From a virus: DNA of 64,000 nt. Positions 1-6,528 of the stretch are shown in pieces. Numbering within the stretch: the stretch's first letter is position 1; each line of letters begins with the position of its first letter. Made by a program: the position numbers and the translations under genes. The stretch lies in the IMG/VR virus record IMGVR_UViG_3300038466_000014, one strand, 5' to 3'. Under the pieces are notes generated by a model. That model had not been told where the DNA came from and ran no database searches. It saw only the letters and a program-made list of their open reading frames with translations.

Positions 1-496
1 TATCACAGCCCAATTGATATTTGGATTGACCAACAGGGCGTGTCTGATCGGATGTAGACACTTCGGGAAATATCCTAATTCTACCATAGGAACCGTCTAT
101 ATTGATCTTCATAGAACAATTTTGAAATATATCATCTTCGTCTCTACAATCAATTATCATGGTATCTTTAGGAATGAGATTGTTTATTGCCGGATTTGGA
201 TACCTTCCATATGACGCTTCTACCAAATATAGATTTTCATTTGTTCTTGTCAGATGTCTGCAAACAGATACTTTTGTTTTCCCTACGTTGTCTTCTTTTT
301 TAAAGCATCCGCAGTATGGGAAATTCTTTGGTTCGAGATAATCAAAATCGATAATAAAAATCTTTGATAATGTAGGATTTTCTATTTCATGCAAACATAA
401 TTTAAAAACAAGAGCTGCGCCTACTGTTCCGCAGCCAACTATAAGCAAATGTTTAGGAGTTGTAAAGGATAACTTCGGAGTATTAAAGAGGTCCAT
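1..496 (-). CDS. ThiF/E1-like protein with degenerate adenylation motif (3' end beyond window)
   Basis: Hand-translated, not in the ORF track: MDLFNTPKLSFTTPKHLLIVGCGTVGAALV...IIDFDYLEPKNFPYC...VGKTKV...IIDCRD. GxGxxG Rossmann motif, GGAG SD upstream, open to base 1. Confidence 0.75.
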   Translation of the reverse strand, partial: MDLFNTPKLSFTTPKHLLIVGCGTVGAALVFKLCLHEIENPTLSKIFIIDFDYLEPKNFPYCGCFKKEDNVGKTKVSVCRHLTRTNENLYLVEASYGRYPNPAINNLIPKDTMIIDCRDEDDIFQNCSMKINIDGSYGRIRIFPEVSTSDQTRPVGQSKYQLGCD

Positions 497-555
497 TGAT
501 TATTCTCCGTGATAAGGAGGAGGGGTTCAGTTCCCTCCTCCTTATATAATTTGTT

Positions 556-1293
556 CTAAGATGTTAACCCAAAAGATTCCATCTCTTCCATAATCTGTTG
601 ATTTCTTGCATAGAACTCTCTATCCAAATAATATTCTGCAAAATCGTCTTTGGAAGGGATATTGGCTTCACCAGGGACCGGAATCGTAATATGTTTTGAA
701 ATGGTATTGGAAAGCGGGATGGTAAAAACTTTGGGAATAATGTTTTCTTTGGCCATTTTGACGACTGCATCATTATAAATAAATGTTTTAACGATATCTA
801 CTTTTAGTTGTAATCTTCCGACTACGGTATCCACATTCACGATACCATCTACGAACTGTCCATCACACCACAACAAACTTGCCATGCAATTTTGATTTAC
901 CCATTCTTTATCCGTATGAGAAAATACTTTAAACCCTTCTGGATGTTTGTGTACTATAATATTGTATTCTCCTGAATCGGCCATGTCATCTACAGATGTG
1001 ACTGTAACCGTTTGTTTTGGGATAAACCAGTCATCCCAATCCACATCCAGACTTTTAGTTTCGGGATTAATTTTTCCTTTGAATTGTACGGAAAATTCAT
1101 ATTCTGGGAACAAATCTGAAACTGTCATCATCATATCGTATACGAATCCTGGAATTTCACATTTTATGCTTGTGGTAATTTTGTTTTTATTGCATGTAAA
1201 TACTTGTACCTTTGACCCGTCGGAATATCCGAATTTCTTTGCATAAGCGGGGGCACCAATTTTTCGCATAAATTTCTTTACAGTATTAAACAA
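556..1293 (-). CDS. JAB/MPN+ metallo-isopeptidase
   Basis: HKHPEGFKVFSHTD matches JAMM HxH-x7-S-xx-D; upstream E in PEYEF; adjacent to ThiF and E2. Confidence 0.8.
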   Translation of the reverse strand: MFNTVKKFMRKIGAPAYAKKFGYSDGSKVQVFTCNKNKITTSIKCEIPGFVYDMMMTVSDLFPEYEFSVQFKGKINPETKSLDVDWDDWFIPKQTVTVTSVDDMADSGEYNIIVHKHPEGFKVFSHTDKEWVNQNCMASLLWCDGQFVDGIVNVDTVVGRLQLKVDIVKTFIYNDAVVKMAKENIIPKVFTIPLSNTISKHITIPVPGEANIPSKDDFAEYYLDREFYARNQQIMEEMESFGLTS

Positions 1294-2158
1294 GTGGATT
1301 CAGAAGGGCTATTCCACTGCCTGGATCAGTCATCATATAAAACAAAGCCTTAATAATGGTATCATATATATACGGGTTATGTTTTCTAATTCTATCAATC
1401 ATATTTCCGAAGAATGCATATCTTATGATTTGTCTTGTATCCATACTTATATAATATTCCGGGTAAAACATAATTTTATTGAATTCCGAACTATGCTGGG
1501 AATCAATCATATTGTATTTATTGTTTTCTATATAGTGATGTACAACATTTAAATCATCAAACATCATTATACACACCATAAGAGCGGATAACCGGCTTGA
1601 TATAGAAAAACTTGGATTAGTGTATCCGTCTCTACCCATAACCGGATGATTCTCAGGATTCCCATCTACGGTAATAGATAGTTCATTATATGCGGATCTA
1701 TAAAATGAAATGTTATCAGTAAATTTTTTCATGCTTGATTTTATCGCTACTTGATCTCTAAAGTCAGAATCTCTACAATCGAAAATTACTACTTTTATTC
1801 GACTTGGGAACATATACGGGGCGATGTTATATTTGCTTAATAGTTCTCCTACGTCATCCTGTATTCTTTCCGGAATGGGGTATACCTGCATCGCAGGATT
1901 TCTTGTCGATATAATGGATGCGCAGCACTCACACTTATTTAATCCAACGTGCTCCAGTGTAAACGCGGATCTTCCTATGTTTGACAATTCGACTTTATCA
2001 TCATCAACCATAACAATTGTTTTAATATACGATTGGGAACTTAGAATATCTGCGACGTGGCTGCCAATCCCTCCAAGTCCTATTATTACCGCTAATACAT
2101 ATATATCACAATTAGTATCCCCCTCTCTACCAAATATTTCTTCCTCGACCGAAGGCAT
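1286..2158 (-). CDS. ThiF/MoeB/E1-family adenylyltransferase
   Basis: IIGLGGIGS, VDDDKVELSNIGRS, GLNKCE and FDCRD motifs. Confidence 0.9.
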   Translation of the reverse strand: MPSVEEEIFGREGDTNCDIYVLAVIIGLGGIGSHVADILSSQSYIKTIVMVDDDKVELSNIGRSAFTLEHVGLNKCECCASIISTRNPAMQVYPIPERIQDDVGELLSKYNIAPYMFPSRIKVVIFDCRDSDFRDQVAIKSSMKKFTDNISFYRSAYNELSITVDGNPENHPVMGRDGYTNPSFSISSRLSALMVCIMMFDDLNVVHHYIENNKYNMIDSQHSSEFNKIMFYPEYYISMDTRQIIRYAFFGNMIDRIRKHNPYIYDTIIKALFYMMTDPGSGIALLNPLV

Positions 2159-3582
2159 CAGATCCTCCTAACGGGCTTAGTACGTAAACACGATTTTTGA
2201 CTCTGCATAATATCAGCATGATCAATATTATCAACTCTACGTAGGTTTTTGGTATCCTTCATCCAAGTATTATGCCAGTACGAACTATCCAAGTTCATAA
2301 CCAATAATGATTTTTCAATATATTCCAACCCTTTAATCAATGCATTTATATCGAAACTATTCCATGAATCTCTAATGTAGTCTTCATTATCTCCGAGACA
2401 TACTTTACCAGACGAACGGCATATATTTGGATGAGATGCGTTTTCGGAGACAAACCGGATATTCGAGTTACTATCAAATCGTATAGACATATCTTTCACA
2501 TAACATTCGTTTGCGACTTCTTCAGGAATTAAAAACAACGTATTTTTAGAAATAATATATTTTGGAACTATGTTTACTTCTTTATAAAAATACCCGTTTT
2601 CATCTGGATTATATCCAAATGCTTTTAGTTTGGATATTGCCGAAATGGTTCTACTTAAAGTGTCTTTTAAATTGGATGCATTGTTAATATAAGCCGAATG
2701 TATTATCCGTTCCAATTTTACTCTATAAATCTTATTAAGGACCGATAGACCGATACCCGTAGTCTCCAATAGTTTGTCCAAGTGCTCGAATGCGCAATAA
2801 TTCCTTAAATTACATTCTTTTAATAAATAATTACTAATTTTTAAATTCATTTTATTTAAATGGATATTAATACCTTCCAGATAATTAATAATACATGATG
2901 AGTAATAAAAAACTGTTGATAAAATAGACAAGAGAGACTTTATCATATTTTTGTTTTTATGCTTTGTGTTTGTACAGGATACATTCCCTATCTGTGAGAG
3001 TAAGGACTGAATAACCGATGCGATGTTTAAAGTCAGCTTTAATGATATTATACCATCAGAATTAACGAATATACCTCCAATCGTGGTAGCATAATCCAAA
3101 CTAAAACATGTTAATAAATCATCATATGTTGGCAAGGATTCATTAACAAAATTGTTATCAAAATAAAACACTCGGATTTCTGGCGCCGCTAATGAACTCA
3201 TATTTATTTTTAGATGCGGAGATTCAACCGCTCTTGAATTTATATATGTAGAACCCGAGTCTTTTAATATGCTGGATATAACCAATCTATTTTTTTCGGT
3301 TATCTTTAAATTATTAGTTGCTTTTTCCGTTATATTTTTTATAGTCGAGTCACAACGGTCTGCTAATGCTGAATTATTGACAAAAAACGGCATCCAGCAT
3401 GTATAGTTATTTAACATGACATTTACGGTGTCTTCTAAATCTATAGGTGTAAACAAAATAAAGTCTATGATTTTTGTTATATCTTCTTGTGTTATATTTT
3501 CTACTTCGGTTATCATTTTGATGGTGTTTAAATGTTTATCATGATATTGCTTATTATATTCTTTGTTAATTAAAATGTTCAT
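2158..3582 (-). CDS. Protein with C-terminal prokaryotic E2 (UBC-like) domain
   Basis: SHPNICRSSGKVCLGD resembles the E2 HPN...G.(I/V)C catalytic motif; long N-terminal region unassigned; start overlaps the E1 gene junction. Confidence 0.7.
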   Translation of the reverse strand: MNILINKEYNKQYHDKHLNTIKMITEVENITQEDITKIIDFILFTPIDLEDTVNVMLNNYTCWMPFFVNNSALADRCDSTIKNITEKATNNLKITEKNRLVISSILKDSGSTYINSRAVESPHLKINMSSLAAPEIRVFYFDNNFVNESLPTYDDLLTCFSLDYATTIGGIFVNSDGIISLKLTLNIASVIQSLLSQIGNVSCTNTKHKNKNMIKSLLSILSTVFYYSSCIINYLEGINIHLNKMNLKISNYLLKECNLRNYCAFEHLDKLLETTGIGLSVLNKIYRVKLERIIHSAYINNASNLKDTLSRTISAISKLKAFGYNPDENGYFYKEVNIVPKYIISKNTLFLIPEEVANECYVKDMSIRFDSNSNIRFVSENASHPNICRSSGKVCLGDNEDYIRDSWNSFDINALIKGLEYIEKSLLVMNLDSSYWHNTWMKDTKNLRRVDNIDHADIMQSQKSCLRTKPVRRI

Positions 3583-3639
3583 GGCTCCTTCGGGTTGCGG
3601 GGGTGGCTGGGTATAAGGTCGGCCACCCCCGCAATAATA

Positions 3640-4290
3640 TTAGCAACCGGCCTTGTTGAACCTTTCGACCGTAAGTTCGATCAAAATAGAACTTCCGATC
3701 ACGTCTTCGGTAAGGCTGCTTACACACATTCCGCCGCGCGTTTTCGCAACGTAGTGAACAAATCCTTTATTAGCCGCAAACTCATCGATCGCATAAATGA
3801 TATCTTTTATATCCTCGACGACAAAGTTCTCGCCATTGATGGAAAGTACACGTTCTCCCGGACAAAGAACCGTTTCCTTTCCATCGATAATCACCTTATA
3901 AGTTGTATTGTCGATTGGAATGAATTGATACTTTGGGTTATTCGGAATAGTATATGTGGGAATCGAAGCGGTTTCGACTTCGGGAGGAGTTTCGACCGGA
4001 GGCGTAACGGTATTTTGCACAGTTGTATTGAGTGTATAAGCAAAATAAGAGCCATTAACAGTCTTTCTATGCAGAATCTTTTTATCGTACATATCGTTGA
4101 TCAGTTTCTTGAGGGGATCGCGAAGTTTCGTTTTGCCGAGTTTGTGTGCAATCATAGTAGCGGAAAGCGGCTGATTGTCGTTGCCTTCGAAAATGTCGAT
4201 AACGTCTTGTTCTTTAACCACATTCAGAGTGTCCACCATGAGTCGTTTTAACCTTTCTATGTTTGGTTTTTTACTAAGGATGAGAGTCAT
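3640..4290 (-). CDS. Winged-helix protein fused to a C-terminal ubiquitin-like domain (ends NKAGC)
   Basis: N-terminal LSATMIAHKLGKTK...LINDMYDKKILHR helix-turn-helix/wing pattern, P/T/E-rich linker, beta-rich C-terminus ending KAG-C; first gene of the E2-E1-JAB operon. Confidence 0.6.
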   Translation of the reverse strand: MTLILSKKPNIERLKRLMVDTLNVVKEQDVIDIFEGNDNQPLSATMIAHKLGKTKLRDPLKKLINDMYDKKILHRKTVNGSYFAYTLNTTVQNTVTPPVETPPEVETASIPTYTIPNNPKYQFIPIDNTTYKVIIDGKETVLCPGERVLSINGENFVVEDIKDIIYAIDEFAANKGFVHYVAKTRGGMCVSSLTEDVIGSSILIELTVERFNKAGC

Positions 4291-4321: not shown

Positions 4322-5491
4322 TTATTTATTCAACTTTGTGTTTATATAACTCTCGATAATTGTTAACGATTTAAACAGGTCTGTCAAATATTCTTTAGAT
4401 ATATGTTCCCTTGTGATAATATAACGATCCAATGCAAACGACATTCCGAGGCAGAAGTAGTATAGATTTTTAAGGGGGTCTGGTAGTTGAATCCACATTT
4501 TCGTAATAAATTCGCTAATAGATTTTGAAAAATATTGTTTAATCTTTTTGAAAATAATGTCATCGTGGGTAATTTCAATCTCGGATAAGGTTTGAATATT
4601 TGCATGAATATCAAATTCAAGATTTTTAATGTTATCATTTAATCCGAAAATTTTAGATCTGTGAGTGAAATTAACGGCTTTTGCGATCATGCTAAAATAA
4701 TCGGTAAACGAAGAAGTAGTTCCACCATGATTAAAATTGTTATATAATACATAATACATCTTTAGTTTACCTTTTCCATCATATGAATTTACGAACATTG
4801 TATTTACAGATGTGGTCATAGAATCGGTTTGTTCGAATGGAACACCCATAAATAAATTCGCAACGACCTTGGATGATTCGTTATCAGACCAGATGTCCAC
4901 ATCATCCATAATTTTATTTGTCCAAATCGATTTAAATGGAGCCGTTACGATTTTTGGGGCGGAAGTATATTCCGGTAAAACTTTTTGCATCTCGGATATG
5001 AATGTTTTAAGATTGGCAATCTTATAGTGTTTAGAGACTATACCCGGAGAGATATTCCACACTGCCGGTATTTTATCGGAGTAGAAAACCGCAAACCGGG
5101 AGGTCTTTTTACCATCGGGATCATAGATACGTGTAAATGCGTATTTAACACCGTTAAACTCTTCGAAATCGATAACGTCTGTGGTTTCATCCATAAGTGT
5201 AAGAACCCAATCCGAACTCATATCCGGTTGACCAGTTACCTCGGAATTATCTGGTGTGTCTATTGAACGTAGAGGGGCTGGGGCTGGGTACTTGGTCGTT
5301 AAATCTTCCGTATGCATAAGCGTATTTACTTCTCCGTCATTTAATGCCGTTTCGATATCCACCATAGTGTCGGTCGGATCCGATTCCATTGCGGGGGGAG
5401 TCATGTGTCCAAAAAGTGTTAAGAAATCCCGATTCGGTGTTTGGGACAGCGTTTCCATTATTTTCCGTCCTTGTTGAAAAGATGGTTCCAT
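4322..5491 (-). CDS. DUF932/DUF945-like phage protein
   Basis: GIVSKHYKIAN and FVNSYDGKG recall the VS..Y...N and NS(H/Y)DG motifs of this family. Confidence 0.45.
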   Translation of the reverse strand: MEPSFQQGRKIMETLSQTPNRDFLTLFGHMTPPAMESDPTDTMVDIETALNDGEVNTLMHTEDLTTKYPAPAPLRSIDTPDNSEVTGQPDMSSDWVLTLMDETTDVIDFEEFNGVKYAFTRIYDPDGKKTSRFAVFYSDKIPAVWNISPGIVSKHYKIANLKTFISEMQKVLPEYTSAPKIVTAPFKSIWTNKIMDDVDIWSDNESSKVVANLFMGVPFEQTDSMTTSVNTMFVNSYDGKGKLKMYYVLYNNFNHGGTTSSFTDYFSMIAKAVNFTHRSKIFGLNDNIKNLEFDIHANIQTLSEIEITHDDIIFKKIKQYFSKSISEFITKMWIQLPDPLKNLYYFCLGMSFALDRYIITREHISKEYLTDLFKSLTIIESYINTKLNK

Positions 5492-5841
5492 GCTATTATA
5501 GTTTTATTTAACATTTCCAGAAGTTTTATCTTCTGAGGGTGATCTGAATTCCAAATATTAAGTATTTTTTGGATTGTATCGTTGAACAGTTTTGCGTTTT
5601 TTCTATCTTCTATTTTTTTTGGATCTATATCATCTTTGTTAAACTTGGGAGGTTTGGCATTTTGACGCAGAGCCTGCTTTACTGGCGATGGGGGTATATT
5701 TTCAGATGGGGGTGTGCATTTTCCAGCATGTATATAACCACAATCAGGACATACTCGATTAGTAGTTGGTATTGGAGTAAAAGGAGCAGGCGCCGCAAAC
5801 TGACTTAGGTCTACTTTGGTTGGATCTATTGTTTTTGCCAT
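5458..5841 (-). CDS. hypothetical protein (CPDCGYIH metal-binding motif)
   Basis: Fits the minus-strand gene train. Confidence 0.65.
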   Translation of the reverse strand: MAKTIDPTKVDLSQFAAPAPFTPIPTTNRVCPDCGYIHAGKCTPPSENIPPSPVKQALRQNAKPPKFNKDDIDPKKIEDRKNAKLFNDTIQKILNIWNSDHPQKIKLLEMLNKTIIAWNHLFNKDGK

Positions 5842-5845
5842 TATT

Positions 5846-6151
5846 TTATCCTTTAATTAACAGTTCTCTAACGGTTCTTATTTCGTCTGGATATGATTGT
5901 CCGGCATTATAATGTTGCTTAGGAGATACTATTAGTCTACCAAATATTCCATAGTTTGATAACATTGAAATAGATTTTAGTCTGCGTTCCAAAATGTCTT
6001 TTGTTTTTAACGAACATCTAAAACCTATTAATCCTACAACACCAGCGATCTCTTCATCTGTTAACAGTTTTTGGTTTCTTATTCTGTAGGAAAGGCTTTC
6101 TTCGTCCACAAAACTCCATTCTTCAAATGAGTAAACGATTTGATATTGCAA
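5846..6151 (-). CDS. hypothetical protein
   Basis: Minus-strand ORF filling the gap; overlaps the upstream gene. Confidence 0.55.
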   Translation of the reverse strand: MQYQIVYSFEEWSFVDEESLSYRIRNQKLLTDEEIAGVVGLIGFRCSLKTKDILERRLKSISMLSNYGIFGRLIVSPKQHYNAGQSYPDEIRTVRELLIKG

Positions 6152-6528
6152 AGGGTTAGTTTTGGATTATTAAACATTTTTGAAAGTACACGGATATTAT
6201 CATCGATATAATATATATGAAAATATTCATCCGAATTCAAGTATTTATATAATAAATCAAACTTAATGGATGCCTCGTTGGTCTCTGATCTGCTACGCGA
6301 TAATTTATATTTTATTAGAATCTTTTTTGGGGATAATGAATTTAAGTACAAAAATATTTTTATAAATGGATAATGATAAACTGGACGCTCTGTAATGAGC
6401 ATCCAATCATAGCTTGGGCTGTGTTCAAACGCGGTGTTTATAATTCTACATAAATCAGTAATAGTGTTATATGTTGATTGTATAAGAGTATTATCCAGAT
6501 CTATACAAACTAAAAACTTGTTGTTCAT
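6079..6528 (-). CDS. HAD-superfamily phosphatase (PNKP 3'-phosphatase-like)
   Basis: CIDLDNTL (motif I), LITER (II), K (III), YYIDDN (IV). Confidence 0.75.
   Translation of the reverse strand: MNNKFLVCIDLDNTLIQSTYNTITDLCRIINTAFEHSPSYDWMLITERPVYHYPFIKIFLYLNSLSPKKILIKYKLSRSRSETNEASIKFDLLYKYLNSDEYFHIYYIDDNIRVLSKMFNNPKLTLCNIKSFTHLKNGVLWTKKAFPTE

Follow-up and report, generated by a model that had tools for sequence, protein, structure and literature searches.

The first 4290 nt of a 64,000-nt stretch of viral DNA (IMG/VR record IMGVR_UViG_3300038466_000014), the whole of which is referred to below as the window, are occupied by five consecutive, co-oriented open reading frames (ORFs) of the minus strand. 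They are separated by almost no spacing, and their products bear the features of a ubiquitin-like (Ubl) conjugation pathway. In the direction of their transcription, they are the gene of a putative pre-modifier, further called the tag (3640..4290; 216 aa, or 199 aa if Met18 is the start), an E2-like gene (2158..3582; 474 aa), the gene of a ThiF-type protein designated E1a (1286..2158; 290 aa), a JAB/JAMM peptidase gene (556..1293; 245 aa), and the gene of a second ThiF-type protein, E1b (2..496). The last of them is cut by the window edge: of its product, the window contains 165 aa, and a further ~25-40 aa at the C-terminus are encoded past the window start. The ATG codon of the E1a gene overlaps the stop codon of the E2 gene, and the end of the E1a gene overlaps the start of the JAB gene by 8 nt.

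A preliminary description of this DNA, made from its letters alone, had listed here five consecutive minus-strand genes with a C-terminal KAG-C, an HPN...VC motif, an intact ThiF motif set, a JAMM motif and a second ThiF. Translation of the five genes locates each of these motifs in the ORF to which it had been ascribed. The ORF 3640-4290 ends with FNKAG-C-stop, and the ORF 2158-3582 contains H384-P385-N386 followed by V394-C395. These motif residues do not vary within families assembled from distant relatives (20-44% identity), and the order of the five genes recurs in many independent phage contigs; the motif set is therefore more than a chance assembly.

Predicted functions of the five proteins

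The C-terminal part of the E2-like protein (aa 279-474, nt 2161-2748), which ends with RRI, is predicted to be a UBC-like domain. The HPN triad (H384-P385-N386, nt 2425-2433) lies in SHPNICRSSGKVCLGD, as does the predicted catalytic Cys395 (nt 2398-2400), and the domain also contains N430 and S433. In the alignment of 16 C-terminal domains of this family, H384, N386, C395 and N430 are invariant, and P385, G397 and S433 are nearly so. The spacing from His384 to Cys395 is 11 residues, and a single HAN variant of the triad occurs in L013 (L numbers denote the homologous loci of other contigs). When the family profile was compared with all PDB sequences, the top match was human UBE2C (E 9.4e-4), and ubiquitin-conjugating enzymes made up nearly all of the best 60 matches. 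The alignment with UBE2C begins at HPN, takes in the catalytic Cys and the next helix, and extends to the N-x-DS loop (PNIDSP in UBE2C).

The AlphaFold2 (AF2) model of this domain, based on the family alignment, has a predicted local distance difference test score (pLDDT) of 82.8 and a predicted template modelling score of 0.70. Its Foldseek matches in the PDB are weak and are overwhelmingly E2 or UEV structures, and the 50 best of 48,161 PDB representatives compared with it by VIA-align are almost only of UBC, UEV or RWD folds (Z up to 6.4, with 114-132 residues aligned). Eukaryotic E2 enzymes score higher (Z about 6) than BubB (Z 4.7), and BubB scores higher than CdnG-E2 of CBASS (cyclic oligonucleotide-based antiphage signalling system; Z 4.3). 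A search by shape in the ESM Atlas returned a viral cluster, an archaeal UQ_con cluster (template modelling scores 0.49/0.60) and a Prok-E2_D cluster. The Pfam UQ_con model (PF00179) reaches 15-23.4 bits, with a cut-off of 27, in two relatives of the E2-like protein, along its positions 68-128, which comprise the active-site region; PHROGs and PADLOC gave nothing useful for the protein of the window. The UBE2C profile match and the nearly exclusive UBC/UEV/RWD matches of the model both bear out the UBC-like character of the product of the ORF 2158-3582. Judged from these profiles and this model, the domain is well, though not overwhelmingly, supported as an E2 of the UBC type that uses canonical HPN/Cys chemistry.

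Past residue ~160 the model has little order, and thus the usual two C-terminal helices of UBC domains may be missing. The N-terminal ~280 aa are poorly conserved and variable in length (proteins of this family have 321-707 aa) and represent a candidate target-recognition module.

In its AF2 model (pLDDT 75), the 216-aa tag protein starts with a winged-helix domain (aa 11-87, nt 4030-4260), which a disordered P/T/E linker (aa 92-117) connects to a small C-terminal domain (aa 121-216). The core of this C-terminal domain (aa 143-215, nt 3646-3864) ends with NKAG215. Gly215 (nt 3646-3648) is the conserved end of this core, and Cys216 (nt 3643-3645) forms a one-residue cap before the stop codon. 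Ten tag homologues all have N212, K213 and A214; at position 215 they have G, except for two with A. What follows NKA[G/A] is variable: no residue in L004, L009, L011 and L013, one residue in the window, L002, L006 and L007, 15 residues in L001 and 18 in L015, with tails unrelated in sequence. At the level of sequence, such a variable tail past a conserved terminal Gly is the mark of a ubiquitin-like modifier that undergoes processing.

Whether the C-terminus encoded by 3640-4290 is a beta-grasp, as the preliminary description had supposed, found a divided answer. The AF2 model folds the last 70 residues into a beta-beta-alpha-beta-loop-beta arrangement followed by a tail (core aa 147-210, pLDDT 85-93), but the fold searches with the whole model were swamped by the winged helix. 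The ~70-aa core is colinear with the stand-alone ~90-aa tags and with the E1-fused tag that are described below (hhalign E 0.002). Pfam, PHROGs and PADLOC returned nothing useful for the tag of the window. The Pfam ThiS model (PF02597) matched neither the stand-alone tags nor, at E values up to 10, any of five viral records, and ESM Atlas searches with the tag and with its C-terminal part were uninformative (pLDDT of the Atlas model 0.51).

A PDZ domain was also considered for the C-terminal part of the tag. The weak PDZ_6 match (E 0.0017) covers only the hairpin-plus-helix stretch of aa 142-169, and the stand-alone homologues are ~70-aa cores that end with AG. The PDZ reading, as well as a Fur-like one, was rejected because both leave the terminal motif and these minimal stand-alone homologues unexplained.

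As a separate observation, the 15-residue tail that follows the terminal Gly in the tag of L001 (L001:852-896) ends with LRRV, and 10 of the 16 members of the E2 family end with RR[VI] (2161-2169 in the window). These endings could be a shared docking peptide.

E1a is recognized by the Pfam ThiF model (E 1.5e-16). It contains G27xG29G30xG32, D52, D54, N60, R63, K75 and D127-C-R-D130, and the invariant residues of its family are G27, G29, G30, G32, D52, D54, N60, R63, K75, D127, C128, D130, Y157, Y179 and S183. In the PDB, the family profile matches MccB (4e-20) and ThiF (1e-17); together with UBA1 and UBA5, these span E values of 1e-16 to 4e-20, and MoeB and Cap2 (5e-11) are matched as well. 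In PADLOC, the CBASS E1-E2 models (Cap2-type) match E1a at 2e-12. The Pfam, PDB and invariant-residue evidence thus agrees on an intact ThiF motif set in the ORF 1286-2158.

The second ThiF protein, E1b, is identified both by Pfam (ThiF, E 2.8e-9) and by the PDB profile search, and it matches the PADLOC BilD model with E 1.3e-5. It keeps GxGxxG, the Lys and DCRD, but its Arg-finger stretch SNLNR is changed to KNFPY. Orthologues of E1b in six relatives (180-207 aa) all have KN[FIL]P[YF] in place of NLNR. Since the Arg-finger stretch is replaced throughout this seven-member family, E1b is probably a conserved, adenylation-impaired paralogue, and it is a candidate for the inactive partner subunit of E1a. 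Heterodimeric E1 enzymes of eukaryotes are pairs of an active and an inactive adenylation subunit. In two ~193-kb contigs, a distance of ~5 kb separates the E1b gene from the cassette, downstream of which it lies, and directly after it comes another E2-like gene, a short one (233 aa, HPNL...C; L011:12206-13729, and the same in L012). Possibly, E1b has an E2 partner of its own in some phages.

The JAB protein contains the complete catalytic set of a JAMM peptidase, namely, the upstream Glu66 (nt 1096-1098) and the motif H115-x-H117-x7-S125-x2-D128 (residues 115-128, nt 910-951; HKHPEGFKVFSHTD), which reads H115KH117PEGFKVFS125HTD128 in translation. All five residues, E66, H115, H117, S125 and D128, are invariant in 18 JAB homologues. 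The Pfam Prok-JAB match is below the threshold (14.4 bits with a cut-off of 25, E 0.035), and PADLOC gave no match for the JAB protein of the window. The only PDB match of the family profile is BubCD of Citrobacter (E 0.011), aligned at the JAMM motif. The JAMM assignment is thus upheld by an invariant catalytic set, with the JAB domain of BubCD as the nearest solved relative. The JAB protein is predicted to remove the cap that follows the terminal Gly of the tag and, possibly, it also acts as a deconjugating enzyme.

Genome context and relatives of the cassette

The assignment of the window to a phage is well founded. Nearly all genes of the 64 kb are on one strand, 12 tRNA genes are present, and PHROG matches comprise SbcC, SbcD, the large subunit of topoisomerase II and the beta subunit of a multisubunit RNA polymerase. 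The preliminary description had spoken of a jumbo phage. The phage is indeed large, but the contig from which the window is derived has 180,230 bp, just below the 200-kb mark. GenBank phages gave no DNA match and no close protein match to the window, topoisomerase identity being at best ~32%. Part of the stretch is contained in groundwater metagenome runs.

Homologues of the cassette proteins are distant. A word-indexed protein search returned only the window's own E2-like protein and tag, to which a repeated search with profiles added none, and scans of IMG/VR with single E2, E1a and JAB sequences gave no match. When 1.84 billion representatives were scanned exhaustively with HMMER, eight distant E2 homologues (27-36% identity) were recovered, with the similarity confined to residues ~280-460. 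All eight are encoded by phage-like contigs of the same gene order: SbcD, SbcC, two small genes, a gene of ~365 aa, the tag of ~205 aa, the E2-like protein, ThiF, the JAB protein of ~235-290 aa, often a Gat-QueC protein, and a short ThiF. A scan of IMG/VR with a degenerate pattern derived from the JAB alignment added 14 viral loci in contigs of 27-268 kb. Mapping with hidden Markov models located the whole cassette in L001, L002, L004, L009, L011/L012, L013 and L015, and its parts elsewhere. The survey of neighbourhoods that had been proposed in the preliminary description thus shows that the cassette recurs, placed downstream of SbcCD, in about 20 phage contigs. The cassette is therefore not unique to the phage of the window but is one member of a phage-wide family.

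The sizes of the related phages differ. The estimated completeness (CheckV) of relatives of 193-236 kb is 61-69%, which implies genomes of more than 300 kb for several of them, and the tag-E2-E1-JAB set is also carried by a phage of ~34 kb. The identity between cassette proteins of the window and those of relatives (24-44%) is comparable to that of SbcC (23-31%) and SbcD (34-40%). When one genome per species from 185,579 prokaryotic species was scanned with the JAB profile, only one locus was found. It is a cassette of the second subfamily described below, in a 16-kb contig that is binned in an archaeal metagenome-assembled genome and is itself probably viral. The divergence similar to that of SbcCD, the preserved synteny, the near-absence from cellular genomes and the lack of PADLOC matches for the tag, E2 and JAB proteins argue for a vertically inherited core module of these phages rather than for a recent capture of a bacterial defence island.

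The second subfamily (L017-L021 and L023; e.g., L018:1572-4246) is composed of four parts. Its tag is a stand-alone protein of ~90 aa that ends with YDVAG followed by 0-5 residues (the stand-alone homologues have 75-96 aa), its E2-type protein of ~300 aa has an invariant HYH...CWG and an LE-x-IN-x-x-S helix-loop, its E1 has ~195 aa, and its JAB protein contains HSHH. In L022, the E2, E1 and JAB proteins of this subfamily are present with no recognisable tag. The families of the HPN-type and the HYH-CWG-type E2 proteins are aligned by hhalign weakly (E 0.047), at the Cys-Gly, the helix and IN-x-x-S, and their kinship can be treated as a lead only. In another locus (L010:5557-6918), a tag that ends with YNEAG is fused to the N-terminus of E1, ~170 residues before the Rossmann fold. 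Such a pre-protein resembles the Ubl-E2 fusion of Bub and would need cleavage by JAB.

In six relatives, a gene of a Gat-QueC protein, a fusion of glutamine amidotransferase with QueC (7-deazaguanine pathway), is located between the JAB and E1b genes, at the site that is occupied in the window by a stem-loop at 512-545 (Gat-QueC genes at L001:4170-5831, L002:11142-12836, L004:7902-9590 and L009:7670-9361, among others). A QueD/PTPS gene is located near the cassette in one of the Gat-QueC contigs. The window and L013 contain the whole cassette with no Gat-QueC gene at this spot. A functional link between Gat-QueC and the cassette is possible.

A proposed phage-encoded conjugation cascade and its competing explanations

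Each component of the complete Ubl/E1/E2/JAB machinery that the preliminary description had proposed for this phage has been recovered by independent tests. The roles suggested there, namely, conjugation of the modifier to host or phage proteins or jamming of the host Ubl defence, are conjectures. We consider it likely, with a probability of about 0.7, that the cassette is a phage-encoded, self-contained ubiquitin-like conjugation cascade, which most likely works for the phage itself in the course of its infection. Such a role, rather than that of a mobile island, is indicated by the early/replication-gene setting of the cassette, by its divergence in step with SbcCD and by its near-absence from cellular genomes.

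Several observations weigh against this interpretation. Profile searches with the tag match no ThiS, MoaD, ubiquitin or other known beta-grasp protein, and the Foldseek matches of its whole model are winged-helix/Fur-like, with weak ubiquitin-type matches limited to 5oxh and 9cd2 (E 0.17-0.18). The E2-like protein of the window has no Pfam match, the UQ_con threshold being unattained, and its structural matches are middling (Z about 6, best Foldseek E 0.07). E1a has no conserved catalytic Cys, as its sole invariant Cys is that of DC(R/T)D, which is present also in ThiF; from the sequence, a classical E1~Ubl thioester step is therefore unlikely and the transfer would be unorthodox. Moreover, the best sequence matches of E1a are MccB and PaaA, neither of which conjugates proteins. 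The sequencing runs listed for the stretch are of DNA only, and the target, the timing and any benefit to the phage are all inferred.

The motifs, folds and conservation described above allow us to propose the following order of steps. The JAB protein would first strip from the 216-aa pre-modifier whatever follows Gly215, i.e., the Cys216 cap in the phage of the window; the invariant NKAG, the variable tails and the precedents of Bub and Cap3 point to such processing. E1a, probably dimerised with E1b, would then adenylate the carboxylate of Gly215 with the use of ATP. As E1a lacks a conserved catalytic Cys, the hand-off would proceed without an E1 thioester: most likely, Cys395 of E2 would receive the tag directly from the adenylate or, in the manner of Bub, by way of the invariant Tyr179/Ser183, with Asn386 of HPN supporting the catalysis. 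The ~280-aa N-terminal region of E2 would pick the target, and the tag would be joined to a lysine of it. In effect, a nucleic-acid-binding winged-helix module would be covalently attached to the target. Finally, the JAB protein may reverse the mark.

Among the known systems, the generic class of Ubl-E1-E2-JAB associations delineated by Iyer et al. (2006) is the one whose E1, E2, JAB and terminal-Gly features are all found in the cassette. Bil resembles it in having separate genes of Ubl, E2, JAB and E1 and no E3; in the absence of E3, the E2 presumably chooses the target in both. An inactive and an active adenylation domain are joined in the E1 of Bil, and the phages likewise have one degenerate and one intact ThiF domain. 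The E1 of Bil, however, is a single polypeptide of the IAD-AAD-CYS type, whereas the ThiF domains of the phages are separate proteins (290 aa and about 190-205 aa) with no inserted Cys domain. The PADLOC models of BilA, BilB and BilC match none of the phage tag, E2 and JAB proteins, and the BilD model matches only E1b. Additionally, the phage tag bears a winged helix and its gene belongs to the phage core region, in contrast to the location of Bil in bacterial defence islands.

The similarity to Bub concerns mainly the JAB and E1 proteins. BubCD, the only solved relative of the phage JAB family, has a JAB domain that cuts the pre-tag right after the conserved Gly, and the E1 of Bub is minimal, of the homodimer type, devoid of the catalytic Cys and equipped with an invariant Tyr. 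The phage E1a recalls it as a minimal E1 with no conserved Cys apart from that of DC(R/T)D and with invariant downstream Tyr residues (Y157, Y179), either of which may correspond to Y370 of BubCD. Both systems have tags with N-terminal domains of various kinds, and both include pre-proteins made by fusion (BubAB in Bub, Ubl-E1 in L010). Unlike the E2 of Bub, which uses Ser/oxyester chemistry, the phage E2 has an invariant Cys preceded by HPN at the aligned position, and the genes that are fused in Bub are separate in the phages. DUF6527 (BubE) was not found by Pfam in the five cassette genes or in their three upstream neighbours.

With the UBC-type E2 enzymes of eukaryotes and archaea, such as UBE2C and UBE2D, the phage protein shares HPN, the catalytic Cys at a distance of 11 residues from the His, the helix that comes next, the Asn-x-Asp-Ser loop and the UBC alpha/beta core, and it differs from them in its sub-threshold Pfam scores and in the ~280-aa N-terminal extension. 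In CBASS, as is predicted for the phage cassette, E1, E2 and JAB activities (Cap2/Cap3) act on a C-terminal Gly or Ala. Nevertheless, Cap2 is an E2-E1 fusion acting on CD-NTase, while the E2 and E1 of the phages are separate and their tag is a dedicated protein; no CD-NTase was found by Pfam and PADLOC among the cassette genes and the scanned neighbours. The tail assembly genes of phages lambda and T1 comprise a pair of TAPI (Ubl) and TAPK (JAB-NlpC/P60) (Iyer et al. 2006). In contrast to the complete enzyme set encoded among replication and repair genes in the phages studied here, this pair belongs to the tail cluster and is accompanied by neither E1 nor E2. The ThiS-ThiF, MoaD-MoeB and MccA-MccB pairs include the best sequence matches of E1a, and in them a ThiF-fold enzyme adenylates a C-terminal carboxylate; they involve, however, no E2 and no protein conjugation, and the ThiS model misses the phage tag.

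The same genes can be explained in other ways. The best placed of these explanations, albeit unlikely, is counter-defence: the cassette would act against Ubl or CBASS immunity of the host by JAB-mediated deconjugation, by tagging and thereby inactivating defence proteins, or by means of a decoy tag that floods the host enzymes. Phage tail proteins are reported to be tagged by Bil systems of the host, and against these the phage would profit from an isopeptidase or a rival cascade of its own; the variation of the E2 N-terminal region, reflected in protein lengths of 321-707 aa, is as expected in an arms race. However, a lone JAB would suffice for deconjugation, yet the set of five genes is conserved, and its proteins show no detectable likeness to BilA, BilB or BilC.

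There is also little probability that the machinery is a weapon against other phages, i.e., a defence system riding on a phage and acting in superinfection exclusion in the manner of Bil or Bub. A link to anti-phage immunity is shared by all the characterised bacterial Ubl-E1-E2-JAB systems (Bil, Bub and CBASS Cap2/Cap3), and the matches of E1a to the CBASS E1-E2 models (2e-12) and of E1b to BilD (1.3e-5) are in line with such a function. Nonetheless, the defence models of PADLOC do not extend to the tag, E2 and JAB proteins, and the fixed site by SbcCD and the core-gene-like divergence are unlike those of a variable island. The cassette is, furthermore, almost absent from the 185,579 cellular genomes and is present also in the ~34-kb phage.

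A carrier function, in which the terminal Gly would be adenylated for sulfur transfer or nucleotide attachment in the style of ThiS/MoaD or MccB and would feed a nucleic-acid modification, e.g., by 7-deazaguanine, appears distinctly improbable. It would accord with MccB, ThiF and PaaA as the top solved relatives of E1a, with the missing catalytic Cys, with Gat-QueC inside the cassette in six relatives and QueD/PTPS near one of them, and with E2-less sets of JAB, E1 and carrier known in sulfur pathways (Iyer et al. 2006). But every HPN-type cassette encodes an E2 with invariant HPN, Cys and N-x-DS, which has no role in carrier chemistry; besides, Gat-QueC is missing from the cassette of the window and of L013, which is otherwise entire, and the Pfam ThiS model finds nothing. 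Least probable, and very much so, is that the 216-aa protein is a winged-helix, Fur/MarR-like regulator of the operon and no modifier, which would leave the cluster tagless: the Foldseek alignments to Fur proteins, which take in both domains of the whole model (E 0.006-0.05), the strong winged helix-turn-helix match (Z 9-10 to ArsR, MarR and Z-alpha domains in the structure search) and the frequent pairing of bacterial Bub operons with such regulators favour it, but the Fur alignments have a root-mean-square deviation of 17-20 A, no metal-binding His/Cys is conserved, the invariant residues of the tag are P125, N152, N212, K213 and A214, and NKA[G/A] with its variable tails, the stand-alone homologues of the C-terminal domain and the E1 fusion are left unexplained.

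If the cassette is a conjugation cascade of the phage, its meaning can be sketched further. We tentatively suggest, with a chance that we judge to be slightly below even, that a lineage of large or jumbo phages and a second lineage with stand-alone tags have vertically inherited their own Ubl conjugation pathway, with an HPN/Cys E2, a split pair of active and inactive E1 and a tag that would attach a DNA- or RNA-binding winged helix to targets during infection. It would then rank as the first complete system of the ubiquitination type that is native to bacterial viruses and as a possible missing link between the Bub/Bil systems and canonical E2 chemistry. To date, the Ubl conjugation systems characterised in prokaryotes (Bil, Bub, CBASS Cap2/Cap3) have been weapons of bacteria against phages. 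Viruses of bacteria would then also employ covalent tagging of proteins to their own advantage, much as ubiquitin is manipulated by many viruses of eukaryotes. The cassette combines features that had been assigned to different branches, namely, a canonical HPN/Cys E2, a Bub-like, Cys-less minimal E1, a two-gene pair of active and degenerate E1, and a nucleic-acid-binding tag. It is also small, modular and easily reconstituted, which makes the hand-off from E1 to E2 in the absence of an E1 Cys directly testable.

In the open-access literature, we found no description of a complete Ubl-E1-E2-JAB cascade encoded by a phage, although an earlier report is possible. Overviews of jumbo phages (2021, 2026), preprints on Bil, papers on Bub and a 2024 review of ubiquitin evolution do not mention a phage-borne version. 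For phages, Iyer et al. (2006) described only the Ubl-plus-JAB pair of lambdoid tail assembly.

Hairpins and flanking genes

Two gaps of the cassette contain stem-loops. A GC-rich one with a 13-bp stem (minus strand, 3593..3632) is located in the 57-nt gap between the tag and E2 genes. The predicted energy of its RNA fold is -29.7 kcal/mol (z -4.4), and none of 200 shuffled sequences was equally stable. It may act in partial termination or in the stability of the mRNA and thereby set the ratio of the tag to the enzymes. A perfect stem-loop of 13 bp (minus strand, 512..545) occupies the gap between the JAB and E1b genes (-23.6 kcal/mol, z -4.6) and was also listed by a scan for terminator-like structures. 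Neither of the stems is followed by a T-run. The inverted-repeat scan reported neither hairpin, and both were recognized by eye and by folding; the scans for sigma-70 promoters and terminators performed no better than on shuffled sequence. Both stem-loops may set the tag-to-enzyme stoichiometry or mark sites of RNA processing.

Directly upstream of the tag gene, on the same strand, lies a gene of a 389-aa protein of no recognised family (4322..5491), for which no Pfam, PHROG, PADLOC or PDB profile match was obtained. Its orthologues are encoded directly upstream of the tag gene also in L002, L004, L009 and L013, and the protein may be an accessory component, an adaptor or a target of the cascade. 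Between the cassette and SbcC, there are also genes of a 127-aa protein with a weak zinc-ribbon signal (5458-5841) and of a 149-aa protein with a weak NIF/HAD-phosphatase signal (6079-6528), the latter of which is kept in relatives.

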